DNA from: Auanema rhodensis
Taxonomy: Eukaryota > Animalia > Nematoda
DNA length: 64,000 nt
Direction of reading: 5' to 3'
Assembly (NCBI GenBank): GCA_964057225.1
Contig: OZ059900.1
Span: 26,722,001-26,786,000, forward strand
Made by a program: the position numbers and the translations under genes
Part shown: in pieces, positions 2,883 through 64,000 of the stretch
How the letters are laid out: each line of letters begins with the position of its first letter
Position numbering within the stretch: the first letter of the stretch is position 1
The notes under the pieces: generated by a model
Database searches by the model: none
Told to the model about the DNA's origin: nothing
The model's input: the letters and a program-made list of their open reading frames with translations, nothing else

Positions 2883-2886
2883 TTTC

Positions 2887-12278: not shown

Positions 12279-12308
12279 TTAGTAAAAGCATTAGTAAAAG
12301 AAAAATTT

Positions 12309-12802: not shown

Positions 12803-13240
12803 GACAGACCACCACGATTTAGTCATCTCATATGTTTCGCTCATAACAGTCACTGTAGCTTTTGTTATCGTCTAGGACGGTTATTTCATACTAATATTGT
12901 TACAATTCTTTTCTAATTACTCATTTTATCTTGATTTAATTATTTCTATTATCTTCATACGTACTCCTTATTTCGATTTAAAATTTTATTTTATCTCTAT
13001 TTTCATCCTGATTTAATGATTTTTATTAACTTCATTTTTTTCAACTTCATCTCTTGATTCATTGTTCATTGTATCTTTTTCATTCTTCTTATCTTATTTT
13101 TCATTCTTCTTGAAAATTTTTCGAAATTAATAATTTTTTTTAGTGTCCACTCAAGATTTAGTGAAATATTTTATAATAAAATCGAACCTTAAGGTAAATT
13201 ATTTGCTTTTCTGAAATTCTGAATAATAATTTCATTCAGT

Positions 13241-13957: not shown

Positions 13958-14059
13958 TTTGTTTACTTTGAACTCAATAAATATTGTTGAAACCTCATCG
14001 TCGTATTTTTATTTTCTCAGGAACTTAATTTATACAATATTAAAATAAGAAACATGAAA

Positions 14060-17000: not shown

Positions 17001-17196
17001 AACAAGCCCCTTTTGATAACCTGTTGAATGACACTTTTTCATTCATATATTAACCCACGATATATTTTCTATGTGTCATTTTTGAAATAAACTATTCTAA
17101 AAATTGTGCAAATCACCCAAAAACCCAAATTTTTAAAGGTCATATGTTCTTCCAAATTTGAGTCAGTAACAAGCCATTTTGCGATAATCTGTTGAA
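14060..17196. repeat. Diverged ~167-bp repeat family with a unique insert; orientation flips at ~15845
   Basis: Recurrent GGTGATTT...CAAAAATGACAC...TTCAACAGATTATC...CTTGTTACTGACTCAAATTTGGAAGAACATATGACC blocks at ~167-bp spacing; they are reverse-complemented after ~15845. Confidence 0.88.
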
Positions 17197-41100: not shown

Positions 41101-44100
41101 ATATTAGTCTAAAAACAAATTTTTATTGATATTGGTTCATGGTAACCATGTCTTTGAAATTTACGTGAACTTTAATTTATGCTAATTAAATGTACACGTG
41201 ATGTGCACTTGGTATGTAACTCGCTTCACGTGAAAGATAAAGAGATGCGGTTTTCAAAATTAGATTCCCCATGTCCATATTAGTCTAAAAACAAATTTTT
41301 ATTGATATTGGTGCATGGTAACCATGACTTTGAAATTTACGTGAACTTTAATTTATGCTAATTAAATGTACACGTGATGTACACTTGGTATGTAACTCGC
41401 TTCACGTGAAAGATAAAGAGATGCGGTTTTCAAAATTAGATTCCCCATGTCCATATTAGTCTAAAAACAAATTTTTATTGATATTGGTTCATGGTAACCA
41501 TGTCTTTGAAGTTTACGTGAACTTTAATTTATGCTAATTAAATGTGCACGTGATGTGCACTTGGTATGTAACTCGCTTCACGTGAAAGATAAAGAGATGC
41601 GGTTTTCAAAATTAGATTCCCCATGTCCATATTAGTCTAAAAACAAATTTTTATTGATATTGGTGCATGGTAACCATGACTTTGAAATTTACGTGAACTT
41701 TAATTTATGCTAATTAAATGTACACGTGATGTGCACTTGGTATGTAACTCGCTTCACGTGAAAGATAAAGAGATGCGGTTTTCAAAATTAGATTCCCCAT
41801 GTCCATATTAGTCTAAAAACAAATTTTTATTGATATTGGTTCATGGTAACCATGACTTTGAAATTTACGTGAACTTTAATTTATGCTAATTAAATGTACA
41901 CGTGATGTGCACTTGGTATGTAACTCGCTTCACGTGAAAGATAAGGAGATGTGGTTTTTAAAATTAGATTCCCCATGTCCATATTAGTCTAAAAACAAAT
42001 TTTTATTGATATTGGTTCATGGTAACCATGTCTTTGAAATTTACGTGAACTTTAATTTATGCTAATTAAATGTACACGCGATGTGCACTTGGTATGTAAC
42101 TCGCTTCACGTGAAAGATAAAGAGATGCGGTTTTCAAAATTAGATTCCCCATGTCCATATTAGTCTAAAAACAAATTTTTATTGATATTGGTGCATGGTA
42201 ACCATGACTTTGAAATTTACGTGAACTTTAATTTATGCTAATTAAATGTACACGTGATGTACACTTGGTATGTAACTCGCTTCACGTGAAAGATAAAGAG
42301 ATGCGGTTTTCAAAATTAGATTCCCCATGTCCATATTAGTCTAAAAACAAATTTTTATTGATATTGGTTCATGGTAACCATGACTTTGAAATTTACGTGA
42401 ACTTTAATTTATGTTAATTAAATGTACAAGTGATGTACACTTGGTATGTAACTCGCTTCACGTGAAAGATAAAAAGATGCGGTTTCCAAAATTAGATTCC
42501 CCATGTCCATATTAGTCTAAAAACAAATTTTTATTGATATTGGTTCATGGTAACCATGTCTTTGAAATTTACGTGAACTTTAATTTATGCTAATTAAATG
42601 TACACGTGATGTGCACTTGGTATGTAACTCGCTTCACGTGAAAGATAACGAGATGTGGTTTTCAAAATTAGATTCCCCATGTCCATATTAGTCTAAAAAC
42701 AAATTTTTATTGATATTGGTTCATGGTAACCATGTCTTTGAAATTTACGTGAACTTTAATTTATGCTAATTAAATGTACACGTGATGTGCACTTGGTATG
42801 TAACTCGCTTCACGTGTAAGATAAAGAGATGCGGTTTTCAAAATTAGATTCATCATGTCCATATTAGTCTAAAAACAAATTTTTATTGATATTGGTGCAT
42901 GGTAACCATGACTTTGAAATTTACGTGAACTTTAATTTATGCTAATTAAATGTACACGTGATGTGCCCTTGGTATGTAACTCGCTTCACGTGAAAGATAA
43001 AGAGATGCGGTTTTCAAACTTAGATTCCCCATGTCCATATTAGTCTAAAAACAAATTTTTATTGATATTGGTTCATGGTAACCATGACTTTGAAATTTAC
43101 GTGAACTTTAATTTATGCTAATTAAATGTACACGTGATGTGCCCTTGGTATGTAACTCGCTTCACGTGAAAGATAAAGAGATGCGGTTCTCAAAATTAGA
43201 TTCCCCAAGTCCATATTAGTCTAAAAACAAATTTTTATTGATATTGGTTCATGGTAACCATGTCTTTGAAGTTTACGTGAACTTTAATTTATGCTAATTA
43301 AATGTACACGTGATGTGCACTTGGTATGTAACTCGCTTCACGTGAAAGATAAAGAGATGCGGTTTTCAAAATTAGATTCCCCATGTCCATATTAGTCTAA
43401 AAACAAATTTTTATTGATATTGGTGCATGGTAACCATGACTTTGAAATTTACGTGAACTTTAATTTATGCTAATTAAATGTACACGTGATGTGCACTTGG
43501 TATGTAACTCGCTTCACGTGAAAGATAAAGAGATGCGGTTTTCAAAATTAGATTCCCCATGTCCATATTAGTCTAAAAACAAATTTTTTTGATATTGGTT
43601 CATGGTAACCATGTCTTTGAAATTTACGTGAACTTTAATTTATGCTAATTAAATGTACACGTGATGTGCACTTGGTATGTAACTCGCTTCACATGAAAGA
43701 TAAAGAGATGCGGTTTTCAAAATTAGATTCCCCATGTCCATATTAGTCTAAAAACAAATTTTTATTGATATTGGTTCATGGTAACCATGACTTTGAAATT
43801 TACGTGAACTTTAATTTATGCTAATTAAATGTACACGTGATGTGCACTTGGTATGTAACTCGCTTCACGTGAAAGATAAAGAGATGTGGTTTTTAAAATT
43901 AGATTCCCCATGTTCATATTAGTCTAAAAACAAATTTTTATTGATATTGGTGCATGGTAACCATGACTTTGAAATTTACGTGAACTTTAATTTATGCCAA
44001 TTAAATGTACACGTGATGTACACTTGGTATGTAACTCGCTTCACGTGAAAGATAAAGAGATGCGGTTTTCAAAATTAGATTCCCCATGTCCATATTAGTC

Positions 44101-47100
44101 TAAAAACAAATTTTTATTGATATTGGTTCATGGTAACCATGTCTTTGAAATTTACGTGAACTTTAATTTATGCTAATTAAATGTACACGTGATGTGCACT
44201 TGGTATGTAACTCGCTTCACGTGTAAGATAAAGAGATGCGGTTTTCAAAATTAGATTCATCATGTCCATATTAGTCTAAAAACAAATTTTTATTGATATT
44301 GGTGCATGGTAACCATGACTTTGAAATTTACGTGAACTTTAATTTATGCTAATTAAATGTACACGTGATGTGCCCTTGGTATGTAACTCGCTTCACGTGA
44401 AAGATAAAGAGATGCGGTTTTCAAACTTAGATTCCCCATGTCCATATTAGTCTAAAAACAAATTTTTATTGATATTGGTTCATGGTAACCATGTCTTTGA
44501 AGTTTACGTGAACTTTAATTTATGCTAATTAAATGTACACGTGATGTGCACTTGGTATGTAACTCGCTTCACGTGAAAGATAAAGAGATGCGGTTTTCAA
44601 AATTAAATTCCCCATGTCCATATTAGTCTAAAAACAAATTTTTATTGATATTGGTTCATGGTAACCATGTCTTTGAAATTTACGTGAACTTTAATTTATG
44701 CTAATTAAATGTACACGCGATGTGCACTTGGTATGTAACTCGCTTCACGTGAAAGATAAAGAGATGCGGTTTTCAAAATTAGATTCCCCATGTCCATATT
44801 AGTCTAAAAACAAATTTTTATTGATATTGGTTCATGGTAACCATGTCTTTGAAATTTACGTGAACTTTAATTTATGCTAATTAAATGTACACGTGATGTG
44901 CACTTGGTATGTAACTCGCTTCACGTGAAAGATAAGGAGATGTGGTTTTTAAAATTAGATTCCCCATGTCCATATTAGTCTAAAAACAAATTTTTATTGA
45001 TATTGGTGCATGGTAACCATGACTTTGAAATTTACGTGAACTTTAATTTATGCTAATTAAATGTACACGTGATGTACACTTGGTATGTAACTCGCTTCAC
45101 GTGAAAGATAAAGAGATGCGGTTTTCAAAATTAGATTCCCCATGTCCATATTAGTCTAAAAACAAATTTTTATTGATATTGGTTCATGGTAACCATGTCT
45201 TTGAAATTTACGTGAACTTTAATTTATGCTAATTAAATGTACACGCGATGTGCACTTGGTATGTAACTCGCTTCACGTGAAAGATAAAGAGATGCGGTTT
45301 TCAAAATTAGATTCCCCATGTCCATATTAGTCTAAAAACAAATTTTTATTGATATTGGTGCATGGTAACCATGACTTTGAAATTTACGTGAACTTTAATT
45401 TATGCTAATTAAATGTACACGTGATGTACACTTGGTATGTAACTAGCTTCACGTGAAAGATAAAGAGATGCGGTTTTCAAAATTAGATTCCCCATGTCCA
45501 TATTAGTCTAAAAACAAATTTTTATTGATATTGGTTCATGGTAACCATGACTTTGAAATTTACGTGAACTTTAATTTATGTTAATTAAATGTACAAGTGA
45601 TGTACACTTGGTATGTAACTCGCTTCACGTGAAAGATAAAAAGATGCGGTTTCCAAAATTAGATTCCCCATGTCCATATTAGTCTAAAAACAAATTTTTA
45701 TTGATATTGGTTCATGGTAACCATGTCTTTGAAATTTACGTGAACTTTAATTTATGCTAATTAAATGTACACGTGATGTGCACTTGGTATGTAACTCGCT
45801 TCACGTGAAAGATAACGAGATGTGGTTTTCAAAATTAGATTCCCCATGTCCATATTAGTCTAAAAACAAATTTTTATTGATATTGGTTCATGGTAACCAT
45901 GTCTTTGAAATTTACGTGAACTTTAATTTATGCTAATTAAATGTACACGTGATGTGCACTTGGTATGTAACTCGCTTCACGTGTAAGATAAAGAGATGCG
46001 GTTTTCAAAATTAGATTCATCATGTCCATATTAGTCTAAAAACAAATTTTTATTGATATTGGTGCATGGTAACCATGACTTTGAAATTTACGTGAACTTT
46101 AATTTATGCTAATTAAATGTACACGTGATGTGCCCTTGGTATGTAACTCGCTTCACGTGAAAGATAAAGAGATGCGGTTTTCAAACTTAGATTCCCCATG
46201 TCCATATTAGTCTAAAAACAAATTTTTATTGATATTGGTTCATGGTAACCATGACTTTGAAATTTACGTGAACTTTAATTTATGCTAATTAAATGTACAC
46301 GTGATGTGCCCTTGGTATGTAACTCGCTTCACGTGAAAGATAAAGAGATGCGGTTCTCAAAATTAGATTCCCCAAGTCCATATTAGTCTAAAAACAAATT
46401 TTTATTGATATTGGTTCATGGTAACCATGTCTTTGAAGTTTACGTGAACTTTAATTTATGCTAATTAAATGTACACGTGATGTGCACTTGGTATGTAACT
46501 CGCTTCACGTGAAAGATAAAGAGATGCGGTTTTCAAAATTAGATTCCCCATGTCCATATTAGTCTAAAAACAAATTTTTATTGATATTGGTGCATGGTAA
46601 CCATGACTTTGAAATTTACGTGAACTTTAATTTATGCTAATTAAATGTACACGTGATGTGCACTTGGTATGTAACTCGCTTCACGTGAAAGATAAAGAGA
46701 TGCGGTTTTCAAAATTAGATTCCCCATGTCCATATTAGTCTAAAAACAAATTTTTTTGATATTGGTTCATGGTAACCATGTCTTTGAAATTTACGTGAAC
46801 TTTAATTTATGCTAATTAAATGTACACGTGATGTGCACTTGGTATGTAACTCGCTTCACGTGAAAGATAAAGAGATGCGGTTTTCAAAATTAGATTCCCC
46901 ATGTCCATATTAGTCTAAAAACAAATTTTTATTGATATTGGTTCATGGTAACCATGACTTTGAAATTTACGTGAACTTTAATTTATGCTAATTAAATGTA
47001 CACGTGATGTGCACTTGGTATGTAACTCGCTTCACGTGAAAGATAAAGAGATGTGGTTTTTAAAATTAGATTCCCCATGTTCATATTAGTCTAAAAACAA

Positions 47101-50100
47101 ATTTTTATTGATATTGGTTCATGGTAACCATGACTTTGAAATTTACGTGAACTTTAATTTATGCCAATTAAATGTACACGTGATGTGCACTTGGTATGTA
47201 ACTCGCTTCACGTGAAAGATAAAGAGATGCGGTTTTTGAAATTAGATTCCCCATGTCCATATTAGTCTAAAAACAAATTTTTATTGATATTGGTTCATGG
47301 TAACCATGTCTTTGAAATTTACGTGAACTTTAATTTATGCTAATTAAATGTACACGTGATGTGCACTTGGTATGTGACTCGCTTCACGTGAAAGATAAAG
47401 AGATGCGGTTCTCAAAATTAGATTCCCCAAGTCCATATTAGTCTAAAAACAAATTTTTATTGATATTGGTTCATGGTAACCATGTCTTTGAAGTTTACGT
47501 GAACTTTAATTTATGCTAATTAAATGTACACGTGATGTGCACTTGGTATGTAACTCGCTTCACGTGAAAGATAAAGAGATGCGGTTTTCAAAATTAGATT
47601 CCCCATGTCCATATTAGTCTAAAAACAAATTTTTATTGATATTGGTTCATGGTAACCATGTCTTTGAAGTTTACGTGAACTTTAATTTATGCTAATTAAA
47701 TGTACACGTGATGTGCACTTGGTATGTAACTCGCTTCACGTGAAAGATAAAGAGATGCGGTTTTCAAAATTAAATTCCCCATGTCCATATTAGTCTAAAA
47801 ACAAATTTTTATTGATATTGGTTCATGGTAACCATGTCTTTGAAATTTACGTGAACTTTAATTTATGCTAATTAAATGTACACGCGATGTGCACTTGGTA
47901 TGTAACTCGCTTCACGTGAAAGATAAAGAGATGCGGTTTTCAAAATTAGATTCCCCATGTCCATATTAGTCTAAAAACAAATTTTTATTGATATTGGTGC
48001 ATGGTAACCATGACTTTGAAATTTACGTGAACTTTAATTTATGCTAATTAAATGTACACGTGATGTACACTTGGTATGTAACTCGCTTCACGTGAAAGAT
48101 AAAGAGATGCGGTTTTCAAAATTAGATTCCCCATGTCCATATTAGTCTAAAAACAAATTTTTATTGATATTGGTGCATGGTAACCATGACTTTGAAATTT
48201 ACGTGAACTTTAATTTATGCTAATTAAATGTACACGTGATGTGCCCTTGGTATGTAACTCGCTTCACGTGAAAGATAAAGAGATGCGGTTTTCAAAATTA
48301 GATTCCCCATGTCCATATTAGTCTAAAAACAAATTTTTATTGATATTGGTGCATGGTAACCATGACTTTGAAATTTACGTGAACTTTAATTTATGCTAAT
48401 TAAATGTACACGTGATGTACACTTGGTATGTAACTCGCTTCACGTGAAAGATAAAGAGATGCGGTTTTCAAAATTAGATTCCCCATGTCCATATTAGTCT
48501 AAAAACAAATTTTTATTGATATTGGTTCATGGTAACCATGACTTTGAAATTTACGTGAACTTTAATTTATGTTAATTAAATGTACAAGTGATGTACACTT
48601 GGTATGTAACTCGCTTCACGTGAAAGATAAAAAGATGCGGTTTCCAAAATTAGATTCCCCATGTCCATATTAGTCTAAAAACAAATTTTTATTGATATTG
48701 GTTCATGGTAACCATGTCTTTGAAATTTACGTGAACTTTAATTTATGCTAATTAAATGTACACGTGATGTGCACTTGGTATGTAACTCGCTTCACGTGAA
48801 AGATAACGAGATGTGGTTTTCAAAATTAGATTCCCCATGTCCATATTAGTCTAAAAACAAATTTTTATTGATATTGGTTCATGGTAACCATGTCTTTGAA
48901 ATTTACGTGAACTTTAATTTATGCTAATTAAATGTACACGTGATGTGCACTTGGTATGTAACTCGCTTCACGTGTAAGATAAAGAGATGCGGTTTTCAAA
49001 ATTAGATTCATCATGTCCATATTAGTCTAAAAACAAATTTTTATTGATATTGGTGCATGGTAACCATGACTTTGAAATTTACGTGAACTTTAATTTATGC
49101 TAATTAAAAGTACACGTGATGTGCCCTTGGTATGTAACTCGCTTCACGTGAAAGATAAAGAGATGCGGTTTTCAAACTTAGATTCCCCATGTCCATATTA
49201 GTCTAAAAACAAATTTTTATTGATATTGGTTCATGGTAACCATGACTTTGAAATTTACGTGAACTTTAATTTATGCTAATTAAATGTACACGTGATGTGC
49301 CCTTGGTATGTAACTCGCTTCACGTGAAAGATAAAGAGATGCGGTTCTCAAAATTAGATTCCCCAAGTCCATATTAGTCTAAAAACAAATTTTTATTGAT
49401 ATTGGTTCATGGTAACCATGTCTTTGAAGTTTACGTGAACTTTAATTTATGCTAATTAAATGTACACGTGATGTGCACTTGGTATGTAACTCGCTTCACG
49501 TGAAAGATAAAGAGATGCGGTTTTCAAAATTAGATTCCCCATGTCCATATTAGTCTAAAAACAAATTTTTATTGATATTGGTGCATGGTAACCATGACTT
49601 TGAAATTTACGTGAACTTTAATTTATGCTAATTAAATGTAGACGTGATGTGCACTTGGTATGTAACTCGCTTCACGTGAAAGATAAAGAGATGCGGTTTT
49701 CAAAATTAGATTCCCCATGTCCATATTAGTCTAAAAACAAATTTTTTTGATATTGGTTCATGGTAACCATGTCTTTGAAATTTACGTGAACTTTAATTTA
49801 TGCTAATTAAATGTACACGTGATGTGCACTTGGTATGTAACTCGCTTCACGTGAAAGATAAAGAGATGCGGTTTTCAAAATTAGATTCCCCATGTCCATA
49901 TTAGTCTAAAAACAAATTTTTATTGATATTGGTTCATGGTAACCATGACTTTGAAATTTACGTGAACTTTAATTTATGCTAATTAAATGTACACGTGATG
50001 TGCCCTTGGTATGTAACTCGCTTCACGTGAAAGATAAAGAGATGCGGTTTTCAAACTTAGATTCCCCATGTCCATATTAGTCTAAAAACAAATTTTTATT

Positions 50101-53100
50101 GATATTGGTTCATGGTAACCATGACTTTGAAATTTACGTGAACTTTAATTTATGCTAATTAAATGTACACGTGATGTGCCCTTGGTATGTAACTCGCTTC
50201 ACGTGAAAGATAAAGAGATGCGGTTCTCAAAATTAGATTCCCCAAGTCCATATTAGTCTAAAAACAAATTTTTATTGATATTGGTTCATGGTAACCATGT
50301 CTTTGAAGTTTACGTGAACTTTAATTTATGCTAATTAAATGTACACGTGATGTGCACTTGGTATGTAACTCGCTTCACGTGAAAGATAAAGAGATGCGGT
50401 TTTCAAAATTAGATTCCCCATGTCCATATTAGTCTAAAAACAAATTTTTATTGATATTGGTGCATGGTAACCATGACTTTGAAATTTACGTGAACTTTAA
50501 TTTATGCTAATTAAATGTACACGTGATGTGCACTTGGTATGTAACTCGCTTCACGTGAAAGATAAAGAGATGCGGTTTTCAAAATTAGATTCCCCATGTC
50601 CATATTAGTCTAAAAACAAATTTTTTTGATATTGGTTCATGGTAACCATGTCTTTGAAATTTACGTGAACTTTAATTTATGCTAATTAAATGTACACGTG
50701 ATGTGCACTTGGTATGTAACTCGCTTCACGTGAAAGATAAAGAGATGCGGTTTTCAAAATTAGATTCCCCATGTCCATATTAGTCTAAAAACAAATTTTT
50801 ATTGATATTGGTTCATGGTAACCATGACTTTGAAATTTACGTGAACTTTAATTTATGCTAATTAAATGTACACGTGATGTGCACTTGGTATGTAACTCGC
50901 TTCACGTGAAAGATAAAGAGATGTGGTTTTTAAAATTAGATTCCCCATGTTCATATTAGTCTAAAAACAAATTTTTATTGATATTGGTTCATGGTAACCA
51001 TGACTTTGAAATTTACGTGAACTTTAATTTATGCCAATTAAATGTACACGTGATGTGCACTTGGTATGTAACTCGCTTCACGTGAAAGATAAAGAGATGC
51101 GGTTTTCAAAATTAGATTCCCCATGTCCATATTAGTCTAAAAACAAATTTTTTTGATATTGGTGCATGGTAACCATGACTTTGAAATTTACGTGAACTTT
51201 AATTTATGCTAATTAAATGTACACGTGATGTGCACTTGGTATGTAACTCGCTTCACGTGAAAGATAAAGAGATGCGGTTTTCAAAATTAGATTCCCCATG
51301 TCCATATTAGTCTAAAAACAAATTTTTATTGATATTGGTTCATGGTAACCATGACTTTGAAATTTACGTGAACTTTAATTTATGCTAATTAAATGTACAC
51401 GTGATGTGCACTTGGTATGTAACTCGCTTCACGTGAAAGATAAAGAGATGCGGTTTTCAAAATTAGATTCCCCATGTCCATATTAGTCTAAAAACAAATT
51501 TTTTTGATATTGGTTCATGGTAACCATGTCTTTGAAATTTACGTGAACTTTAATTTATGCTAATTAAATGTACACGTGATGTGCACTTGGTATGTAACTC
51601 GCTTCACGTGAAAGATAAAGAGATGCGGTTTTCAAAATTAGATTCCCCATGTCCATATTAGTCTAAAAACAAATTTTTATTGATATTGGTTCATGGTAAC
51701 CATGACTTTGAAATTTACGTGAACTTTAATTTATGCTAATTAAATGTACACGTGATGTGCACTTGGTATGTAACTCGCTTCACGTGAAAGATAAAGAGAT
51801 GTGGTTTTTAAAATTAGATTCCCCATGTTCATATTAGTCTAAAAACAAATTTTTATTGATATTGGTTCATGGTAACCATGACTTTGAAATTTACGTGAAC
51901 TTTAATTTATGCTAATTAAATGTACACGTGATGTGCACTTGGTATGTAACTCGCTTCACGTGAAAGATAAAGAGATGCGGTTTTCAAAATTAGATTCCCC
52001 ATGTCCATATTAGTCTAAAAACAAATTTTTTTGATATTGGTGCATGGTAACCATGACTTTGAAATTTACGTGAACTTTAATTTATGCTAATTAAATGTAC
52101 ACGTGATGTGCACTTGGTATGTAACTCGCTTCACGTGAAAGATAAAGAGATGCGGTTTTCAAAATTAGATTCCCCATGTCCATATTAGTCTAAAAACAAA
52201 TTTTTATTGATATTGGTTCATGGTAACCATGACTTTGAAATTTACGTGAACTTTAATTTATGCTAATTAAATGTACACGTGATGTGCACTTGGTATGTAA
52301 CTCGCTTCACGTGAAAGATAAAGAGATGTGGTTTTTAAAATTAGATTCCCCATGTTCATATTAGTCTAAAAACAAATTTTTATTGATATTGGTTCATGGT
52401 AACCATGACTTTGAAATTTACGTGAACTTTAATTTATGCCAATTAAATGTACACGTGATGTGCACTTGGTATGTAACTCGCTTCACGTGAAAGATAAAGA
52501 GATGCGGTTTTTGAAATTAGATTCCCCATGTCCATATTAGTCTAAAAACAAATTTTTATTGATATTGGTTCATGGTAACCATGTCTTTGAAATTTACGTG
52601 AACTTTAATTTATGCTAATTAAATGTACACGTGATGTGCACTTGGTATGTGACTCGCTTCACGTGAAAGATAAAGAGATGCGGTTTTCAAAATTAGATTC
52701 CCCATGTCCATATTAGTCTAAAAACAAATTTTTATTGATATTGGTGCATGGTAACCATGACTTTGAAATTTACGTGAACTTTAATTTATGCTAATTAAAT
52801 GTACACGTGATGTGCACTTGGTATGTAACTCGCTTCACGTGAAAGATAAAGAGATGCGGTTTTCAAAATTAGATTCCCCATGTCCATATTAGTCTAAAAA
52901 AAAAAATTTTTATTGATATTGGTTCATGGTAACCATGACTTTGAAATTTACGTGAACTTTAATTTATGTTAATTAAATGTACAAGTGATGTACACTTGGT
53001 ATGTAACTCGCTTCACGTGAAAGATAAAAAGATGCGGTTTCCAAAATTAGATTCCCCATGTCCATATTAGTCTAAAAACAAATTTTTATTGATATTGGTT

Positions 53101-56100
53101 CATGGTAACCATGTCTTTGAAATTTACGTGAACTTTAATTTATGCTAATTAAATGTACACGTGATGTGCACTTGGTATGTAACTCGCTTCACGTGAAAGA
53201 TAACGAGATGTGGTTTTCAAAATTAGATTCCCCATGTCCATATTAGTCTAAAAACAAATTTTTATTGATATTGGTTCATGGTAACCATGTCTTTGAAATT
53301 TACGTGAACTTTAATTTATGCTAATTAAATGTACACGTGATGTGCACTTGGTATGTAACTCGCTTCACGTGTAAGATAAAGAGATGCGGTTTTCAAAATT
53401 AGATTCATCATGTCCATATTAGTCTAAAAACAAATTTTTATTGATATTGGTGCATGGTAACCATGACTTTGAAATTTACGTGAACTTTAATTTATGCTAA
53501 TTAAATGTACACGTGATGTGCACTTGGTATGTAACTCGCTTCACGTGAAAGATAAGGAGATGTGGTTTTTAAAATTAGATTCCCCATGTCCATATTAGTC
53601 TAAAAACAAATTTTTATTGATATTGGTTCATGGTAACCATGTCTTTGAAATTTACGTGAACTTTAATTTATGCTAATTAAATGTACACGCGATGTGCACT
53701 TGGTATGTAACTCGCTTCACGTGAAAGATAAAGAGATGCGGTTTTCAAAATTAGATTCCCCATGTCCATATTAGTCTAAAAACAAATTTTTATTGATATT
53801 GGTGCATGGTAACCATGACTTTGAAATTTACGTGAACTTTAATTTATGCTAATTAAATGTACACGTGATGTACACTTGGTATGTAACTCGCTTCACGTGA
53901 AAGATAAAGAGATGCGGTTTTCAAAATTAGATTCCCCATGTCCATATTAGTCTAAAAACAAATTTTTATTGATATTGGTTCATGGTAACCATGACTTTGA
54001 AATTTACGTGAACTTTAATTTATGTTAATTAAATGTACAAGTGATGTACACTTGGTATGTAACTCGCTTCACGTGAAAGATAAAAAGATGCGGTTTCCAA
54101 AATTAGATTCCCCATGTCCATATTAGTCTAAAAACAAATTTTTATTGATATTGGTTCATGGTAACCATGTCTTTGAAATTTACGTGAACTTTAATTTATG
54201 CTAATTAAATGTACACGTGATGTGCACTTGGTATGTAACTCGCTTCACGTGAAAGATAACGAGATGTGGTTTTCAAAATTAGATTCCCCATGTCCATATT
54301 AGTCTAAAAACAAATTTTTATTGATATTGGTTCATGGTAACCATGTCTTTGAAATTTACGTGAACTTTAATTTATGCTAATTAAATGTACACGTGATGTG
54401 CACTTGGTATGTAACTCGCTTCACGTGTAAGATAAAGAGATGCGGTTTTCAAAATTAGATTCATCATGTCCATATTAGTCTAAAAACAAATTTTTATTGA
54501 TATTGGTGCATGGTAACCATGACTTTGAAATTTACGTGAACTTTAATTTATGCTAATTAAATGTACACGTGATGTACACTTGGTATGTAACTCGCTTCAC
54601 GTGAAAGATAAAGAGATGCGGTTTTCAAAATTAGATTCCCCATGTCCATATTAGTCTAAAAACAAATTTTTATTGATATTGGTTCATGGTAACCATGACT
54701 TTGAAATTTACGTGAACTTTAATTTATGTTAATTAAATGTACAAGTGATGTACACTTGGTATGTAACTCGCTTCACGTGAAAGATAAAAAGATGCGGTTT
54801 CCAAAATTAGATTCCCCATGTCCATATTAGTCTAAAAACAAATTTTTATTGATATTGGTTCATGGTAACCATGTCTTTGAAATTTACGTGAACTTTAATT
54901 TATGCTAATTAAATGTACACGTGATGTGCACTTGGTATGTAACTCGCTTCACGTGAAAGATAACGAGATGTGGTTTTCAAAATTAGATTCCCCATGTCCA
55001 TATTAGTCTAAAAACAAATTTTTATTGATATTGGTTCATGGTAACCATGTCTTTGAAATTTACGTGAACTTTAATTTATGCTAATTAAATGTACACGTGA
55101 TGTGCACTTGGTATGTAACTCGCTTCACGTGTAAGATAAAGAGATGCGGTTTTCAAAATTAGATTCATCATGTCCATATTAGTCTAAAAACAAATTTTTA
55201 TTGATATTGGTGCATGGTAACCATGACTTTGAAATTTACGTGAACTTTAATTTATGCTAATTAAATGTACACGTGATGTGCCCTTGGTATGTAACTCGCT
55301 TCACGTGAAAGATAAAGAGATGCGGTTTTCAAACTTAGATTCCCCATGTCCATATTAGTCTAAAAACAAATTTTTATTGATATTGGTTCATGGTAACCAT
55401 GACTTTGAAATTTACGTGAACTTTAATTTATGCTAATTAAATGTACACGTGATGTGCACTTGGTATGTAACTCGCTTCACGTGAAAGATAAAGAGATGCG
55501 GTTCTCAAAATTAGATTCCCCAAGTCCATATTAGTCTAAAAACAAATTTTTATTGATATTGGTTCATGGTAACCATGTCTTTGAAGTTTACGTGAACTTT
55601 AATTTATGCTAATTAAATGTACACGTGATGTGCACTTGGTATGTAACTCGCTTCACGTGAAAGATAAAGAGATGCGGTTTTCAAAATTAGATTCCCCATG
55701 TCCATATTAGTCTAAAAACAAATTTTTATTGATATTGGTGCATGGTAACCATGACTTTGAAATTTACGTGAACTTTAATTTATGCTAATTAAATGTACAC
55801 GTGATGTGCACTTGGTATGTAACTCGCTTCACGTGAAAGATAAAGAGATGCGGTTTTCAAAATTAGATTCCCCATGTCCATATTAGTCTAAAAACAAATT
55901 TTTTTGATATTGGTTCATGGTAACCATGTCTTTGAAATTTACGTGAACTTTAATTTATGCTAATTAAATGTACACGTGATGTGTACTTGGTATGTAACTC
56001 GCTTCACGTGAAAGATAACGAGATGTGGTTTTCAAAATTAGATTCCCCATGTCCATATTAGTCTAAAAACAAATTTTTATTGATATTGGTTCATGGTAAC

Positions 56101-57784
56101 CATGTCTTTGAAATTTACGTGAACTTTAATTTATGCTAATTAAATGTACACGTGATGTGCACTTGGTATGTAACTCGCTTCACGTGTAAGATAAAGAGAT
56201 GCGGTTTTCAAAATTAGATTCATCATGTCCATATTAGTCTAAAAACAAATTTTTATTGATATTGGTGCATGGTAACCATGACTTTGAAATTTACGTGAAC
56301 TTTAATTTATGCTAATTAAATGTACACGTGATGTGCCCTTGGTATGTAACTCGCTTCACGTGAAAGATAAAGAGATGCGGTTTTCAAACTTAGATTCCCC
56401 ATGTCCATATTAGTCTAAAAACAAATTTTTATTGATATTGGTTCATGGTAACCATGACTTTGAAATTTACGTGAACTTTAATTTATGCTAATTAAATGTA
56501 CACGTGATGTGCACTTGGTATGTAACTCGCTTCACGTGAAAGATAAAGAGATGCGGTTCTCAAAATTAGATTCCCCAAGTCCATATTAGTCTAAAAACAA
56601 ATTTTTATTGATATTGGTTCATGGTAACCATGTCTTTGAAGTTTACGTGAACTTTAATTTATGCTAATTAAATGTACACGTGATGTGCACTTGGTATGTA
56701 ACTCGCTTCACGTGAAAGATAAAGAGATGCGGTTTTCAAAATTAGATTCCCCATGTCCATATTAGTCTAAAAACAAATTTTTATTGATATTGGTGCATGG
56801 TAACCATGACTTTGAAATTTACGTGAACTTTAATTTATGCTAATTAAATGTACACGTGATGTGCACTTGGTATGTAACTCGCTTCACGTGAAAGATAAAG
56901 AGATGCGGTTTTCAAAATTAGATTCCCCATGTCCATATTAGTCTAAAAACAAATTTTTTTGATATTGGTTCATGGTAACCATGTCTTTGAAATTTACGTG
57001 AACTTTAATTTATGCTAATTAAATGTACACGTGATGTGTACTTGGTATGTAACTCGCTTCACGTGAAAGATAAAGAGATGCGGTTTTCAAAATTAGATTC
57101 CCCATGTCCATATTAGTCTAAAAACAAATTTTTATTGATATTGGTTCATGGTAACCATCACTTTGAAATTTACGTGAACTTTAATTTATGCTAATTAAAC
57201 GTACACGTGATGTGCACTTGGTATGTAACTCGCTTCACGTGAAAGATAAAGAGATGTGGTTTTTAAAATTAGATTCCCCATGTTCATATTAGTCTAAAAA
57301 CAAATTTTTATTGATATTGGTTCATGGTAACCATGACTTTGAAATTTACGTGAACTTTAATTTATGCCAATTAAATGTACACGTGATGTGCACTTGGTAT
57401 GTAACTCGCTTCACGTGAAAGATAAAGAGATGCGGTTTTTGAAATTAGATTCCAAATGTCCATATTAGTCTAAAAACAAATTTTTATTGATATTGGTTCA
57501 TGGTAACCATGTCTTTGAAATTTACGTGAACTTTAATTTATGCTAATTAAATGTACACGTGATGTGCACTTGGTATGTAACTCGCTTCACGTGAAAGATA
57601 AAGAGATGCGGTTTTCAAAATTAGATTCCCCATGTCCATATTAGTCTAAAAACAAATTTTTATTGATATTGGTGCATGGTAACCATGACTTTGAAATTTA
57701 CGTGAACTTTAATTTATGCTAATTAAATGTACACGTGATGTACACTTGGTATGTAACTCGCTTCACGTGAAAGATAAAGAGATG
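17197..57784. repeat. 176-bp satellite DNA array, ~230 monomers, very homogeneous
   Basis: TTTGAAATTT recurs at 17225, 17401, 17577 and onward (period 176); monomer CATGGTAACCATGACTTTGAAATTTACGTGAAC...TTGATATTGGTT. Confidence 0.99.
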
Positions 57785-58674
57785 AATGGAAATGTGCATA
57801 TTGGTGCTGGAATCGCTACGCATGCCTATGTTGTTCCCGAAAACTTGAAATATGTGAATTACTCGTGAGTTGTTTTTCATTTATGCTGATGTATTATATG
57901 TGCTTTTCAGTACTGCTGTGAAAGGTTTTGTACAATTTGGAGAACTGAAGTTAAGAATTTCGGATCTTGCCGGACCTCTTCTGAATGCTGTCAATCTTGC
58001 TACTGTTGCGACTGCCAGTTATGCTGCAACTCCTGCTGATGTCACACTTGTTTTTGGATGTGCCCTATCTACTGGATTAAGTTCTTGGAATGAAAATGGA
58101 CCGATACGCGAGATGAATGCCGAGGAACTCAAGAGTTTGGAGAAATACTTCCGTGTAGCTGATGGGGAGAAGATCTTTGATGAAGTTGTGCACACCTTCC
58201 TCGTGCCTGCGGGTTTTTCACCTGCAATGTATGCTGAATCAGTGAAAGTGATGATCGCGGGAAAGCTACAGTGGTGGACCACGGGACATCACTTAGGATC
58301 TGTACGGACTGAAAAAGCTGGGGACGAAACGAGAAGAACCGGATATTTATGGAAAGTGCTGAGAGAGTCAACATCATGGACCGATATTTCATCTTCAACG
58401 AATCTGATCCTTCTTCATGCAGCGCTCCATTTCTGTGACACGAGGAAAGTAATGAAAACCATAACCGGATCTGAGAAAATTAGGATTCAATTCGACCAAA
58501 TTGTTCCTATAACTACTGGAGGAGACGTAAGGATTAGGATTGCTCCATACGGTGCCGGAGCGAAAAGATGGGTGAATTCTTATAAGTCATGCACTGCAAT
58601 GAAAGCATCCCCAGTCATCTACTTTCTTGATCGGATCTTACAAAATGACATTGTTGACGTCCTCAATTATGGGC
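57782..58674 (+). pseudogene. Endogenous viral element: qinvirus-like nucleoprotein fragment with one 46-bp intron (57865-57910)
   Basis: KLQWWTTGHHLG, ALHFCDTRKVM and DVRIRIAPYGAGAKR match the order of the K-x-N-W-W-x-x-N-H-H-x-G, H-W-x-S-T and D-x-x-L-R-x-x-x-x-P-A-G-T motifs I recall for Qinviridae N. GTGAGT...TTTTCAG splices exon 57782-57864 in frame (YVNYS|TAVKGF). It is bounded by the satellite at the 5' end and by TTAGGC at the 3' end. Confidence 0.68.
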
Positions 58675-58800
58675 TTAGGCTTAGGCTTAGGCTTAGGCTT
58701 AGGCTTAGGCTTAGGCTTAGGCTTAGGCTTAGGCTTAGGCTTAGGCTTAGGCTTAGGCTTAGGCTTAGGCTTAGGCTTAGGCTTAGGCTTAGGCTTAGGC
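58672..58800 (+). repeat. Interstitial telomere tract GGC(TTAGGC)x21
   Basis: Perfect repeat directly fused to the coding frame (...LNYG|LRLRLR). Confidence 0.98.
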
Positions 58801-59780
58801 AAGCGTGATTCAGAAACATGGTGGGGGCTCGCCGCCCCCACACCCCCGCTTGCTTCTGGCTCAGATACTATTACGACAATTTAGTGTTCACATGGTTACA
58901 CGGTATGGCCACAATGTGTATATCATCTTAAGTGTGGTACGAGTATCACAATTCATTCATTTCAGGAATCGTATGCTATAATTAAGATTGGGGGCTAGCC
59001 GCCCCCACACCCCCGCTTTCTTCTGCTTCAAATACTATAAAGTCAATTTACTGTTCACATGCTTACGCGGTATGGCTATAATGTATATATCATCTTAAGA
59101 GTGGTATGATTATCAGAATGTTATACATCAAAACTCGTATGGCCACAATGTATATATCATCTTAAGAGTGGTATGATTATCAGAATGTTGTACATCAAAA
59201 CTCGTATGGCCACAATGTATATATCATCTTAAGTGTGGTATGATTATCAGAATGTTGTACATCAAAACTCGTTTGGCCACAATGTATATATCATCTTATC
59301 CCAAAAACAAAGCTTCTTCAGCGGTATCCATGCGGATTTTATAAAAAATCTCGCTGCGTTGCCCTAAATTGTACAGGAGAAACATACAAAGCATGACGGA
59401 CGCTTCTCGGAGCATAATTTTTTTTTCCTGAAAATAAAACTTCAAGATTAAGAAAAAAATAGCATTACGTCTTCAGAGCTTGTTTCTTCATAGGTCGAAA
59501 GAAAATTCTGGAGACGAGGATGGGCAAAACATCGGAATTTCCTATAAAGCATATAAAACGTAGGGAGCGTGGTAGCCATTTTCGATAAAGTTTTTTCTTT
59601 ATTCAGGCCCTCAAAGTTGAAGAATTTTGATAACTAGTGCTTGGTGAATTACCGGTTCAACAATTTTCCTTATTCTTTTAATGACTTTAGTCGACCTATG
59701 AAGAAACAAGCTATGAAAACGTAATGCTATTTTTTTCTTAATCTTGAAGTTTTATTTTCATGTTTTTCTGAATCACGCTT
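58801..59780. mobile_element. ~1-kb non-coding element with terminal inverted repeats, sitting between convergent telomere tracts
   Basis: AAGCGTGATTCAGAAA at 58801-58816 and its perfect reverse complement at 59765-59780. Inside are two GGGGGCT(C/A)GCCGCCCCC hairpin blocks (~58823, ~58990), ~66-68-bp tandem units (~59070-59299) and a nested ~70-bp inverted repeat (59429-59498 / 59691-59760). Confidence 0.7.
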
Positions 59781-59819
59781 GCCTAAGCCTAAGCCTAAGC
59801 CTAAGCCTAAGCCTAAGCC
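59781..59819 (-). repeat. Interstitial telomere tract (TTAGGC)x6 on the minus strand
   Basis: (GCCTAA)6GCC on the + strand. Confidence 0.98.
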
Positions 59820-60660
59820 ATCCAGGACACTTCTTCCGAATAAACAGCTTGAGCTGCACTACATGCCGCTTGTTGATAACGCAAGTGGGGCTTGTCGGTA
59901 GTAGCCTTCCAGACATACCACCCCCAGTCATCCAACTCATAGAATGTCCTAGCCGCTTGAGCGCCTAAAGCTACACTATGGCAGTAAGCCAAAGTTCCCA
60001 TAAACAATTCGATTGCCGTTTCAGAATGGCACATATCCAGCGTGGGAGAGGCTTCATTGGTTACTTGAAGGCTCAGGGAGCTGAAGAAATTACACAGTGG
60101 TTTTCTAAACTTGGGCTTTGGGAATACGGTGGCCAAGGGAGTAAGATAAGAAGGCACAGCAAATAGAATCATCCCACTCTCGGGGTGTCTTCTCAAGCGC
60201 TGGTTGGCGAGCAGAGCAGCATGTTGCCGCCCATATTCGCATTGAAGGCCGTAGCCTAACATTCCTGCTAGTTGTAGCACGGTAGTCTTCCAGTTATCAG
60301 GTGAGAGCGTGGTGAACCCTGCGCGACGCACCAGATCTTGTGGCAGAACATCAGCTGGCTGGTCATTACCAACAGCAAGCTCGTTGAAAAGCCTGTCGTC
60401 AATAATTATCAGCACAGCGGCTCGCCCATTGTCGCCAATCAGTTCAGGGACGTACACTCGATTAGCCAACGGATCAAGGTTAACTACTCCCTCCAGAGGT
60501 GGGGTGTTAACAGAGACGCGCTGGTCAGGGTGAGCAGCAAGCAAGGTGTAAGCGGCGAAAGCCGAACTCCATGTAAGGCCAGTCTTCCTGAGCACGATTG
60601 TAGCTCCTGGACTACAGGCATTGCCTGCCAAAAGATTGCGCATGTTTTGGTTCATTGGAA
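59813..60660 (-). pseudogene. GC-rich intronless coding fragment (~280 codons), probable endogenous viral element, possibly toti-like capsid
   Basis: Uninterrupted frame at roughly 50% GC in a very AT-rich background. It is cut by the 167-bp repeat family at the 5' end and by TTAGGC at the 3' end (the stop comes from the telomere repeat). The family call rests only on loose resemblance (LLAAHP...P; W..TVLQLAGMLG..QC..G). Confidence 0.45.
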
Positions 60661-63600
60661 ACATATATGATCTTTTAAAAGTTCGTGGTTTTCGGTGATT
60701 TGTACTTTTTTTATAACAGTTTATCTGAAAAATGACACACAGGAAATAGATCGTGGGTTGATATATGATACAAAATGTGTTATTCAACATAGAATCAGGG
60801 AGGGCTTGTCACTGACTCAAATTTGGAGGAACATATGAACAACTTTTATGTTATGATGAAACATGACCACAATAATCAACGTCAGATCTCATGTGTATTT
60901 TCTCAAATTTGATTCATGGAAAAGTTCTGTTTTTCTCAAAATGTGTGAAAATAAATATGTAGAACTTAATTCCGAACGGGGCTATTATTTATTTTACCAG
61001 GAACTCATTCTATCACACTGAAACTGATTCGACTGGTTTTATCGATTGATTGAAACAGTCTCTTTTCGAGTTTCTATGTTTAAATGTTGAAAGCGTTTGA
61101 ATGAACATTTTTTGATTTTTAACTTTCAACCTCAAATTTGTTATAGCAATTATATATTTTTGATAGATTCGAGAAGTTTATTTTTTTTTATAAAATGTTT
61201 CAGTACAAACTCATTTAAGTATATGATGAGACAAGAATTATAAAAATTATGGAAGAACTTCTCTCATATCTACAATTTCTTTTTTCTTTATTTGACGCAA
61301 TTGAGAAAATTCTTTTTGTTTCTTGAAATAATTACAAAGATTTGTGATTTGCGATTTGCCCGGTGATTTGTACGTTTTTTAAAGCAGTTTAAATCAAAAA
61401 TGACACACAGCAACTAGATCGTGGGTTAAAATATGGAACAAAATGTGTTATTCAACAGATTATCGCAAAATGGCTTGTTACTGACTCAAATTTGGAAGAA
61501 CATATGACCTTTAAAAATTTGGGTTTTTGGGTGATTTGCACAATTTTTAGAATAGTTTATTTCAAAAATGACACATAGAAAATATATCGTGGGTTGATAT
61601 ATGAATGAGAAAGTGTCATTCAACAGGTTATCAAAAGGGGCTTGTTAATGACTGAAATTCGGAAAAACTTATGATCTCTTAAAACTTTTGGTTTTTGGTG
61701 ATTTGTACGTTTTTTAAAACAGTTTAAATCAAAAATGACACACATCAACTAGATCGTGGGTTAATTTATGAAACAAAATGTGTTATTCAACAGATTATCG
61801 CAAAAAGCTTGTTACTGACTCAAATTTGGAAGAACATATGACCTTTTAAAATTTGGGTTCTTGGGTGATTTGCACAATTTTTAGAATAGTTTATTTCAAA
61901 AATGACATATAGAAAATATATGGTGAGTTGATATATAAATTAAAATGTGTCATTCAACAGATTATCGAAAGAGGCTTGTTACTGACTGAAATTCGGAAAA
62001 ACTTATGATCTCTTAAAACTCTTGGTTTTTGGTGATTTGAAAATTTTATAAAAAAGTTTATCTCAAAATAGACACACAGCAACTAGATCGTGGGTTAATT
62101 TATGAAACAAAATGTGGTATTCAACAGATTATCGCAAAAAGCTTGTTACTGACTCAAATTTGGAAGAACATATGACCTTTTAAAATTTGGGTTTTTGGGT
62201 GATTTGCACAATTTTTAGAATAGTTTATTTCAAAAATGACACATAGAAAATATATCGTGAGTTGATATATGAATGAAAAAGTGTCATTCAACAGGTTATC
62301 AAAAAGGGCTTGTAACTGACTGAAATTCGGAAAAACTTATGATCTCTTAAAACTCTTGGTTTTTGGTGATTTGTACGTTTTTTAAAACAGTTTAAATCAA
62401 AAATGACACATACGAATTGAATTGTGAGTTAATATCTGAATGAACATGTGTTATTTAACAGATTATCAGAAGGGGCTTGTTACTGACTCAAGTTTGGAAA
62501 AACATATGACCTTTAAAAATTTGGGTTTTTGGGTGATTTGCACAATTTTTAGAATAGTTTATTTCAAAAATGACACATAGAAAATATATCGTGAGTTGAT
62601 ATATGAAGGAAAAAGTGTCATCCAACAGGTTATCAAAAGAGGCTTGTTACTGACTGAAATTCGGAAAAACTTATGATCTCTTAAAACTCTTGGTTTTTGG
62701 GTGATTTTCACAATTTTTAAAATAGTTTATCTCAAAATCGACACATACGAATTGAATTGTGAGTTGATATCTGAATGAACATGTGTCATTTAACAGATTA
62801 TCATAAGGGGCTTGTTACTGACTCAAGTTTGGAAAAACATATGACCTTTCAAATGTTGGGTTTTTTGGTGAATTTCACAATTTTAAAAAAAGTTTATCTC
62901 AAAAATGCCACATACGAATTGAATTGTGAAATGATGTATGAATGTTATTTTTTGGGAGATTACTCATCTTGGAGTAGTTGAATTTCAACTACTTGCCTGA
63001 ATTAGCAAAAGTTGAAATTTTAACTACTCGTTTTAAAAAAATATAGTTACTCGTTTTAAATAAATATAGTTAGTATACAGGTTTTCGTTCAAAAATGAAG
63101 AAATTCGAATTAAGCTTTTTGTATCGGAGTAGTTGAAATTCAACTACTTCCCCGCAATCAGTTGGTGAACAAACAATAAAGAAATTCAAATCAAGTTCTT
63201 TGTATCGGAGCCATAATCAATGTGTATTTTCTCGAATTTGATTCATGGAAAAGTTCTGTTTTTCTCAAAATGTGTGAAAATAAATATGTAGAACTTAATT
63301 CCGAACGGGGCTATTATTTATTTTACCAGGAACTCATTCTATCACACTGAAACTGATTCGACTGGTTTTATCGATTGATTGAAACAGTCTCTTTTCGAGT
63401 TTCTATGTTTAAATGTTGAAAGCGTTTGAATGAACATTTTTTGATTTTTAACTTTCAACCTCAAATTTGTTATAGCAATTATATATTTTTGATAGATTCG
63501 AGAAGTTTATTTTTTTTTATAAAATGTTTCAGTACAAACTCATTTAAGTATATGATGAGACAAGAATTATAAAAATTATGGAAGAACTTCTCTCATATCT

Positions 63601-64000
63601 ACAATTTCTTTTTTCTTTATTTGACGCAATTGAGAAAATTCTTTTTGTTTCTTGAAATAATTACAAAGATTTGTGATTTGCGATTTGCCCGGTGATTTGT
63701 ACGTTTTTTAAAGCAGTTTAAATCAAAAATGACACACAGCAACTAGATCGTGGGTTAAAATATGGAACAAAATGTGTTATTCAACAGATTATCGCAAAAT
63801 GGCTTGTTACTGACTCAAATTTGGAAGAACATATGACCTTTAAAAATTTGGGTTTTTGGGTGATTTGCACAATTTTTAGAATAGTTTATTTCAAAAATGA
63901 CACATAGAAAATATATCGTGGGTTGATATATGAATGAGAAAGTGTCATTCAACAGGTTATCAAAAGGGGCTTGTTAATGACTGAAATTCGGAAAAACTTA
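60661..64000 (+). repeat. ~167-bp repeat family, same as 14060-17196, with a 2329-bp tandem duplication
   Basis: 60661-~62030 parallels 14461-15840; ~62640-63133 is the inverse of 15845-~16330; the sequence from 60892 recurs from 63221. Confidence 0.9.

Follow-up and report, generated by a model that had tools for sequence, protein, structure and literature searches.

Telomere–ITS synthesis in Caenorhabditis elegans is among the closest described counterparts of the locus reported here: in the available part of its description (bioRxiv 10.1101/2022.09.04.506531), synthesis starts from telomeres of 47–232 bp at perfect telomere homology, uses some tracts recurrently and shifts templates at 1–2 nt, with small changes at the transitions. 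Neotelomeres of rhabditid nematodes are primed at GG(C), according to portions of PMC13060919 and PMC13370393, and the tracts described below start in the same way. Here we analyse a cassette from Auanema rhodensis in which two telomere tracts converge between two foreign-looking gene fragments, and which we regard, with some reservation, as the probable fusion scar of two telomere-capped foreign fragments.

A cassette of converging tracts

The window (the whole stretch of DNA analysed, 64,000 nt) contains the cassette in the layout given by the first-pass annotation, with truncated ORFs converging on a tract (58672–58800), a 980-bp linker and a second tract (59781–59819); inspection of the sequence confirmed each of these parts, the ORF beyond each tract being cut. 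The features are as follows.

17209..57784 (no strand): 176-bp satellite, 230.6 copies, 97% matches; last unit cut and joined to the virus-related fragment
57782..57864 (+): short piece, coding-like, in a different frame; best placement on the N-terminal block of qinvirus relatives, non-significant
57858..58671 (+): main frame of a 3′-truncated gene related, by similarity searches, to the Qinviridae small-segment protein (putative nucleoprotein)
57865..57910 (+): 46-nt AT-rich stretch, 30% GC, where the frame changes; its ends resemble splice sites, judged by their pattern against shuffles
58672..58800 (+): perfect (TTAGGC)21.5, 129 bp, G-strand, first letters GGC
58801..58820 (+): left copy of the shared end of ~20 nt (the cap); start of the donor-type linker
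58822..59298 (+): 167-bp and 67-bp repeat modules with relatives at other genomic sites; in three of four runs, a loose end at 58982
59301..59692 (+): second module, with a 70-nt arm at 59429–59498; 58801–59692 apparently common to a second locus that diverges after 59692
59691..59760 (−): inverted copy of 59429–59498 with 2 differences; 2-nt overlap (TC) with the shared part
59761..59780 (−): right copy of the shared end, with 2 extra nt in the A run; abuts the 70-nt copy at TG
59781..59819 (−): perfect (TTAGGC)6.5 on the minus strand, that is (GCCTAA)6.5, 39 bp, first letters GGC
59820..60664 (−): intronless ORF fragment, 51% GC, 283 codons, no relative found; 5′ end joined inside the 167/334-bp repeat element
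60640..64000 (no strand): 167/334-bp repeat element, ~94% identical to copies at 14438–17199

Read along the G-strand, both tracts open at GGC directly after the end of the ORF. Their inner joints also correspond: AAGCGTGATTCAGAAA occurs twice in the window (from 58801 on the plus strand and from 59780 on the minus strand), the same 16-mer standing in register at both, as the annotation had claimed. The expectation for this word is 0.04 per window, and none of 100 shuffles held two copies. The match extends over ~20 nt, the A run of the right copy being 2 nt longer. We likewise judge the earlier argument that converging tracts require two separate ends to be right.

The outer flanks of the cassette share no duplication of 2–11 nt. 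The cap had no match in viral contigs and bears no resemblance to the termini of the two qinvirus segments, and other ORFs of the window had no relatives among viral contigs. Rfam gave only sub-threshold matches over 57500–61000, with no family at gathering score, and no match over 1–17500.

Coding fragments on the two sides

The left ORF (57858–58673, plus strand) reads on into the tract and is, on protein similarity, a relative of the Qinviridae (Yingvirus) small-segment protein. It matched P0004 (E = 7.6e-4 in a search among 1.84 billion sequences), is 25–31% identical to the proteins of Hubei qinvirus-like virus 1, Xinzhou nematode virus 3 and P0004, and scores 64 bits against a profile built from these three relatives. 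A pattern search gave 52 matches, two of which were confirmed, both named Yingvirus proteins. No match to the ORF was returned by a word-index search, no more relatives of P0004 by two follow-up searches, and nothing among metagenome contigs by an alignment-based search; predicted folds were too poor to inform (pLDDT 34). Another candidate relative, P0003, was discarded as a spurious match.

Upstream, the placement of 57782..57864 on qinvirus relatives was equalled by 284 of 2,000 shuffles, and adding this piece did not improve the profile score (28 of 500 shuffles equally good). The splice-site-like pattern of 57865..57910, which was first spotted by eye and then shuffle-tested, appeared in 5 of 2,000 dinucleotide shuffles of 57785–58671, and the stretch is likely intron-like. 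Introns are reported from nematode yue-like viruses in the available part of PMC12770441, which gives none for its two qin-like viruses, and the word 'intron' is absent from the portion of PMC6900638 at hand. The left-gene fragment would make the question of introns in nematode qinviruses testable.

The right frame (minus strand) is open for 283 codons and terminates at a TAG within the tract; the longest frame in 1,000 shuffles had 202, and the ORF is coding-like. It had no significant match in Pfam, PDB sequences, ESM Atlas, PHROGs or NCBIfam, among viral or metagenome contigs, or in a 5.8-billion-sequence search (near lengths only), and its single-sequence fold (pLDDT 36) found no match at E ≤ 0.001. 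Of the 'virus gene' and 'virus-like gene' first proposed, the former is thus borne out by Qinviridae similarity, and the latter label is unproven because the right ORF is coding-like but without a relative in the databases searched.

Linker anatomy and contigs from public runs

The right-hand 90 bp of the linker consist of a reversed copy of its first ~20 nt followed by 70 nt of its interior, with a jump at 2 nt of homology (TG) and a join at another 2 nt (TC). Read inward, this end maps in order to the forward linker at 58791–58816 and then at 59429–59498. Homologies of 2 nt readily arise by chance. The two linker ends form imperfect inverted repeats of ~20–23 nt, as the terminal inverted repeats (TIRs) of a transposon do, and the linker modules adjoin other sequence at other sites (loose ends at 58982 and 59301).

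We screened 12 listed runs from three studies for words of the stretch and found all or part of it in nine, with at least half of its words in seven; the best-holding run may be the source sample. Word shares of 0.87–0.90 for the stretch in three runs (run kind guessed as DNA) imply that they contain most of the left gene. No RNA run is among the listed holders, which has no bearing on expression. Contigs from four of the nine holding runs (X1, X3, X4 and X6) were compared over 58783–60720, with contig depth taken as no measure of copy number. The right ORF and its flanking repeat lie on one contig in all four. Single contigs join tract and right ORF in two runs (X1 and X3) and tract and left linker end in two (X3 and X6), in each case with 27–29 tract letters, under the 31-letter bridging rule. 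Among the contigs listed, none spans the whole stretch and none lies over 59749–59790.

In all four runs the longest linker contig ends at 59692. A window-type contig (59663–59743) stands at right-ORF depth in the three runs that list it (32.5/32.7, 8/8.4 and 3/3.9), whereas 59502–59692 is deeper (50.8, 21.8 and 5.06). The bin 59628–59692 carries surplus depth of 11.4 in X1, 7.21 in X3 and 1.67 in X4, as expected if a branching contig shares sequence no farther than 59692. The following bin, 59693–59757, is wholly accounted for by listed contigs in X3 and X4; X1 has a depth of 26.9 beyond them, which may represent a putative short node common to both arms, and X6 shows no surplus before 59692 and nothing after. 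The branch point agrees within 2 nt with the edge of the inverted arm at 59691. In X3 a contig of tract and cap reaches the full depth of the linker (22.3), which places a tract to the left of the second copy too. The contig ends and summed depths of three of the four runs lead us to infer a second locus that shares the tract and 58801–59692 and then diverges, leaving exactly where the inverted right-hand part begins.

Telomere-primed copying and fusion as a probable origin

On the reading that we favour, a qinvirus gene and another foreign gene, both as DNA copies, would have been joined by their 5′ sides to host repeats, and telomerase would have capped the broken 3′ ends of both at GG(C). 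The tract with 58801–59692 would also lie at the second, differently continuing locus that the contigs point to. The 39-bp right telomere would have paired in register with a tract of this kind, copied ~20 nt while slipping in the A run, shifted template at TG to a site ~610 nt farther and copied 70 nt, after which the copied end would have been joined through TC to a linker copy broken at 59692. The enzyme might, by analogy with C. elegans, be polymerase theta. On this view, one short telomere probably copied what lay behind the other tract and so gave rise to the matching inner ends; the apparent TIR would be a by-product, not the end of an element, and the linker is probably not a transposon.

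Several observations match this course of events. Both tracts are short and perfect, the 39-bp one just below the published range and the 129-bp one within it; a duplicated donor is indicated by the second locus (three of four runs); and the TG, the TC and the longer A run are such as template shifts leave, a pattern weak by itself. That telomerase capped the foreign fragments we infer in part from phase: all three long tracts open at GGC or AGGC (~0.04, by hand, under uniform phase), which is modest evidence. The third of them (12732) begins at a seed that is also present, without a tract, in its twin arm.

Of the origins offered in the first-pass annotation, a common TTAGGC-primed cap at both ends comes closest to this account, with the amendment that a single donor seems to have been the source of the shared end; a linker element bridging two ends applies only loosely, in that the linker joins two tracts, and no element with two termini was found. 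If the fusion reading is true, the locus is a natural, base-resolved case of the copying and fusion known from C. elegans telomerase mutants, and telomere-primed copying can imitate an inverted-repeat transposon.

A wider interpretation, which we put forward as speculative and rather unlikely, is that broken or uncapped germline chromosome ends take up RNA viruses: a host repeat end would prime reverse transcription on unspliced negative-strand viral RNA, telomerase would cap the product and telomere-primed fusion would bury it. Because the repeat end would have primed on unspliced negative-strand RNA, repeat, sense gene with intron kept and telomere would follow one another on both sides. If so, telomere healing is a route for the integration of non-retroviral viruses, and nematode qinviruses use host splicing.

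Alternative explanations

The annotation's third proposal was a TA-duplicating transposon within a telomere–telomere fusion. In its fuller form, a non-autonomous DNA transposon with GGC-ended inverted repeats of ~23 nt entered the centre of a head-to-head telomere fusion with TA duplication, or the linker is a hybrid of two copies inserted oppositely in two tracts. We think this improbable. Its imperfect inverted ends do share one register, an element beginning at GGC would fit a 2-nt TA duplication, the head-to-head target that it needs is seen in one X4 contig (a direct tract junction with one loose end), and 4389–7209 holds a foldback element whose inward ends resemble telomeres. A TA (or GC) target duplication fits formally, only for a palindromic target. 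Against it, and against the related view of a common MITE, the second copy departs at 59693, the edge of the inverted segment, without the right 'TIR'; no further linker copy with both termini is found among the contigs listed; and linker depth is just ~1.3–2.6 times that of the right ORF. Moreover, the contigs listed hold no strand-change joint for a same-orientation copy, the modules are differently flanked elsewhere, and the inner 70-nt arm is left unexplained.

The tracts could also be older telomere pieces attached by end joining. Here the fusion would be the same, with pre-existing telomere or interstitial tracts cut and end-joined to the foreign fragments in a region where satellites, elements and foreign DNA accumulate. 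The other ends of the same fragments do abut non-telomeric repeats, and other foreign-looking ORFs of the window adjoin telomere-like satellites and element ends, not pure tracts; both tracts, however, are perfect and start with GGC, and the tract at 12732 looks seed-primed, and we hold this version to be as improbable as the transposon.

Less likely still, the shared ~20 nt would have been reverse-transcribed from the telomerase RNA leader, 5′ of the template, and added by read-through at both ends before the filler. The cap has a suitable register and length, the C. elegans template lying at position 29 of the RNA in the available part of PMC12921731, and telomerase-RNA pieces adjoin rodent interstitial tracts (part of PMC2246262). 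However, the portion of the PMC12921731 supplement at hand, on other species, holds no match to the cap, the Caenorhabditis template consensus given there has a different phase, the third long tract lacks such a cap, and donor copying already accounts for the right one.

Local misassembly, in which real pieces were joined through collapsed telomere repeats, is very unlikely. It draws on the fact that no listed contig spans the cassette or covers 59749–59790, and that the comparison began at 58783, to the right of the joint between left gene and tract; yet the window-specific contig over the inner join recurs at right-ORF depth in three runs of two studies, tract–ORF and tract–linker contigs come from separate runs, and the word shares of 0.87–0.90 in three runs imply that most of the left gene is present. 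Least probable of all is a site of programmed DNA elimination, whose linker would be removed in the soma to leave two ends with ready telomere seeds: the satellite-rich setting resembles eliminated rhabditid DNA and GG(C) priming fits, but the joints lack the GGC-3nt-GCC palindrome given in the available part of PMC13060919, and the linker is deeper than the right ORF in all four runs, a comparison confounded by the second copy.

Comparison with known systems

Our literature search, with most subscription journals outside its coverage, found neither an endogenous viral element nor a TIR transposon with TTAGGC. Non-retroviral endogenous elements of Qinviridae (Yingvirus) are, like the left fragment, truncated relatives embedded in host repeats; the present one differs in having a perfect telomere tract as its end and an intron-like stretch. 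Should the fusion reading hold, an RNA-virus fossil directly abuts a fresh telomere tract, and the role of end healing in fixing viral DNA in nematode germlines becomes testable.

Among telomeric arrangements, TERC-ITS of rodents (part of PMC2246262) also have a constant piece of non-telomeric DNA next to an inserted tract. TALT of C. elegans, in the portion of PMC8034613 available, is likewise unique DNA copied with the aid of flanking telomere repeats, but its flanks run in one direction and its copies are tandem, whereas the present locus has converging tracts and no array. Fusion-type interstitial tracts such as human 2q13-14 (PMC6410037, in part) share converging tracts inside a chromosome; in our case the tracts are short and perfect, with 980 bp of templated filler between them.

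The greatest resemblance is to fusions in C. elegans telomerase mutants, in which, as here, a short perfect tract primes in register, copies tract-adjacent DNA and shifts at 1–2 nt before the ends are fused. Telomere–ITS fusions of that kind join former chromosome ends and need polymerase theta and RTEL-1. In the part of PMC8034613 at hand, 20 of 20 fused ends had lost their telomeric repeats, whereas both tracts are kept here. Unlike the mutant fusions, this DNA occurs in runs of several studies, in which nothing points to a mutant background, and its fused ends bear foreign gene fragments.

Structure and setting of the cassette

The window is composed of AT-rich, repeat-filled eukaryotic DNA with tracts of TTAGGC, the telomere repeat of nematodes (PMC12921731), which points to a nematode source. 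The cassette (57782–60660) runs from a truncated left gene through a telomeric tract, a linker of ~1 kb and an opposed telomeric tract to a converging right gene:

17209–57784, 176-bp satellite (repeat analysis)
57858–58673, plus strand, truncated left ORF (protein and profile matches to Qinviridae)
58672–58800, plus strand, perfect (TTAGGC)21.5 (sequence inspection)
Inside the linker, 167-bp and 67-bp repeat modules (repeat analysis)
59429–59498 and 59691–59760, 70-nt inverted pair (inverted-repeat analysis)
59781–59819, perfect (GCCTAA)6.5, with GCCTAA on the plus strand (sequence inspection)

Read on the G strand, each tract begins at GGC immediately past a truncated, sense-oriented ORF and gives way to AAGCGTGATTCAGAAA, which occurs twice in the window versus 0.04 occurrences expected. 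The common end at the two inner joints (the cap) matches over ~20 nt, with two extra A in the right copy. The first-pass annotation had described this arrangement, of two cut, converging ORFs with tracts joined in register to a common sequence, correctly. No duplication of 2–11 nt was found between the outer flanks. Satellite and cassette are flanked by ~94% copies, direct and inverted, of one 167/334-bp repeat element (14438–17199 and 60640–64000).

The two coding fragments

Searching the left ORF protein against 1.84 billion representatives gave two matches, one of them spurious; the remaining match, P0004, is a 452-aa protein that stands alone on its 1542-nt contig. An alignment of the left ORF with P0004, compared with viral contigs, yielded 52 pattern hits, of which two loci were confirmed: proteins of Hubei qinvirus-like virus 1 and Xinzhou nematode virus 3 (both Yingvirus, Qinviridae). 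The left ORF scores 64 bits against a profile built from the three relatives alone. Alignment and profile match demonstrate that the predicted product is related to a Qinviridae protein, upholding the earlier description of a virus gene. The relatives are 376–460 aa long, and the window copy ends well short of their C-terminal end. The product is a putative nucleoprotein; database records list a hypothetical protein.

A 46-nt stretch (30% GC) with splice-site-like ends separates two reading frames close to the 5′ end of the left gene. Because this pattern, tested after being spotted by eye, arose in 5/2,000 shuffles, and because nematodes are reported to harbour yue-like viruses with introns (PMC12770441), a putative intron is plausible. 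The best match of a qin-like protein described there is a Nippostrongylus protein. The piece upstream of the frame change is best placed at the relatives' N-terminal block, not significantly (284/2,000 shuffles as good), and contributes nothing to the three-relative profile score.

The right ORF has 283 open codons, compared with a longest frame of 202 in 1,000 shuffles, and a GC content of 51% versus about 30–35% in surrounding DNA; by these measures it is foreign-looking coding DNA. Its earlier label, a virus-like gene, holds for coding character, with a viral origin at most putative: no significant relative was found in Pfam, a 5.8-billion collection (near lengths only), PDB, ESM Atlas, viral/metagenome contigs, PHROGs, NCBIfam or a fold search.

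Other foreign-looking and telomere-like elements occur in the window. At 1–1729, a 25-bp telomere-like array ends in a short GCCTAA run (324–338), followed by a 19-bp repeat and two intronless in-frame ORFs (467–1084 and 1085–1729) separated by one stop, for which neither family nor viral-contig matches were found. A foldback element (4389–7209; 876-bp inverted arms, 99%) has inward-facing telomere-like seeds at its ends and unrelated flanks, its left end adjoining an ORF fragment (4132–4401, minus strand). Its subterminal repeat resembles a 42-bp unit with telomere-like words; at 7862–10114, 39 copies of this unit are fused to a 207-codon ORF that found no relatives in viral contigs. Host-like sequence at 10100–12200, which holds an acidic coding segment and what look like short introns, is flanked by two telomere-like blocks, and a 244-codon ORF (13223–13957) has a weak SprT-like match under the cut-off (E = 0.056).

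Public runs and a second linker locus

Most cassette parts exist outside the assembly: the stretch was present, whole or in part, in 9 of 12 listed runs from three studies. Joints were checked in contigs only, from four of the nine positive runs (X1, X3, X4 and X6), against 58783–60720, a range from the left tract to just beyond the right ORF. The right ORF was continuous with the outer repeat on one contig in 4/4 runs. A single contig linked the tract to the right ORF in X1 and X3 and to the left end of the linker in X3 and X6; each of these contigs holds 27–29 tract letters, below the 31-letter bridging rule. Among contigs listed for the four runs, none crossed the entire stretch or 59749–59790. 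Several single-base differences among runs were seen at 58860–59610.

The contig over the linker's right half ends at 59692 in 4/4 runs. A contig at 59663–59743 and the right ORF have nearly equal depths (32.5/32.7, 8/8.4 and 3/3.9), and the linker before this contig is deeper (50.8, 21.8 and 5.06). Surplus depth in bin 59628–59692 was 11.4 (X1), 7.21 (X3) and 1.67 (X4), or by hand calculation ~25, 16 and 4 over 30 letters, near the second-copy expectation; bin 59693–59757 was wholly explained by listed contigs in X3 and X4. From the contig stops, the depth difference and the surplus before 59692, we infer a second locus that carries the linker through 59692 and then diverges, with the tool's warning that contig depth does not equal copy number. 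Counting against it, X1 leaves 26.9 depth unassigned in 59693–59757, and X6 has neither surplus depth nor a right end. The X3 tract–cap contig is at full linker depth, so the second locus would have a left-hand tract too. Between runs, the ratio of second-copy to window-copy depth varies, which, with the linker single-base differences, hints at polymorphism.

Origin of the cassette

The branch point lies within 2 nt of the inverted-arm start. Inward from the right tract, the right end maps in order to forward linker 58791–58816 and then 59429–59498; these pieces meet at TG, and the joint to the forward strand is at TC. We consider the cassette probably to be a telomere-fusion scar, in which templated filler joins two telomere-capped fragments, a qinvirus fossil and a second gene. 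The right telomere would have paired with a left-type tract, copied from it, switched template and copied again, and the copied end would then have been joined to the forward linker strand; as one event, this would account for both the apparent terminal inverted repeats (TIRs) and the inner inverted pair. The second locus may have been the donor, with telomerase capping the gene fragments and polymerase theta as the presumed enzyme.

Some weight remains with a transposon bearing TIRs at a telomere junction. Duplication of TA or GC fits formally, as the first-pass annotation had proposed for TA, and one X4 contig with a loose end at 59784 reads a direct head-to-head telomere junction (a true fusion or library fold-back). 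However, the two-terminus element of that proposal is opposed by the stop at 59692, where the second copy departs, the depth drop and the surplus confined to sequence before it; a transposon also accounts for the apparent TIR only, not the inner pair, and requires a second copy cut by chance at the same base. Telomerase-RNA read-through is compatible with the cap's length (parts of PMC12921731 and PMC2246262), but the cap had no match in the portion of the PMC12921731 supplement covering other species, and the right copy is explained without read-through. Both gene fragments show the order host repeat, sense gene, telomere, the order expected if negative-strand RNA were reverse-transcribed from a DNA end as primer; with two cases, one lacking viral assignment, we regard that origin as improbable. 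A programmed DNA elimination site agrees with the satellite setting (10.64898/2026.08.27.747507, in part) but not with the motif at the joints or the linker depth.

Comparison with telomere fusions and neotelomeres

In telomerase mutants of C. elegans, telomeres 47–232 bp long initiate DNA synthesis where they meet perfect homology in interstitial tracts, some of which are used recurrently; polymerase theta promotes template shifts at 1–2 nt, which are accompanied by small changes (bioRxiv 10.1101/2022.09.04.506531). The window's three long tracts begin at GGC or AGGC (~0.04 under uniform phase, calculated by hand). The third, (TTAGGC)12 near 12732, stands on a seed also present in a twin arm without a tract. 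There, a 68-bp inverted repeat (12214–12800) has one arm ending in the tract, and its twin has AGGCTT as well but runs on into non-telomeric DNA, which suggests that the seed primed the addition of a telomere. Head-to-head fusion tracts are already known (PMC6410037, in part). In the portion of PMC8034613 describing long reads of ALT survivors, fused ends lack repeats and TALT flanks are unidirectional, whereas the cassette tracts are retained and converge. Priming of new telomeres in rhabditids takes place at GGC or just past a GG (PMC13060919 and PMC13370393), and the cassette tracts likewise start at GGC.
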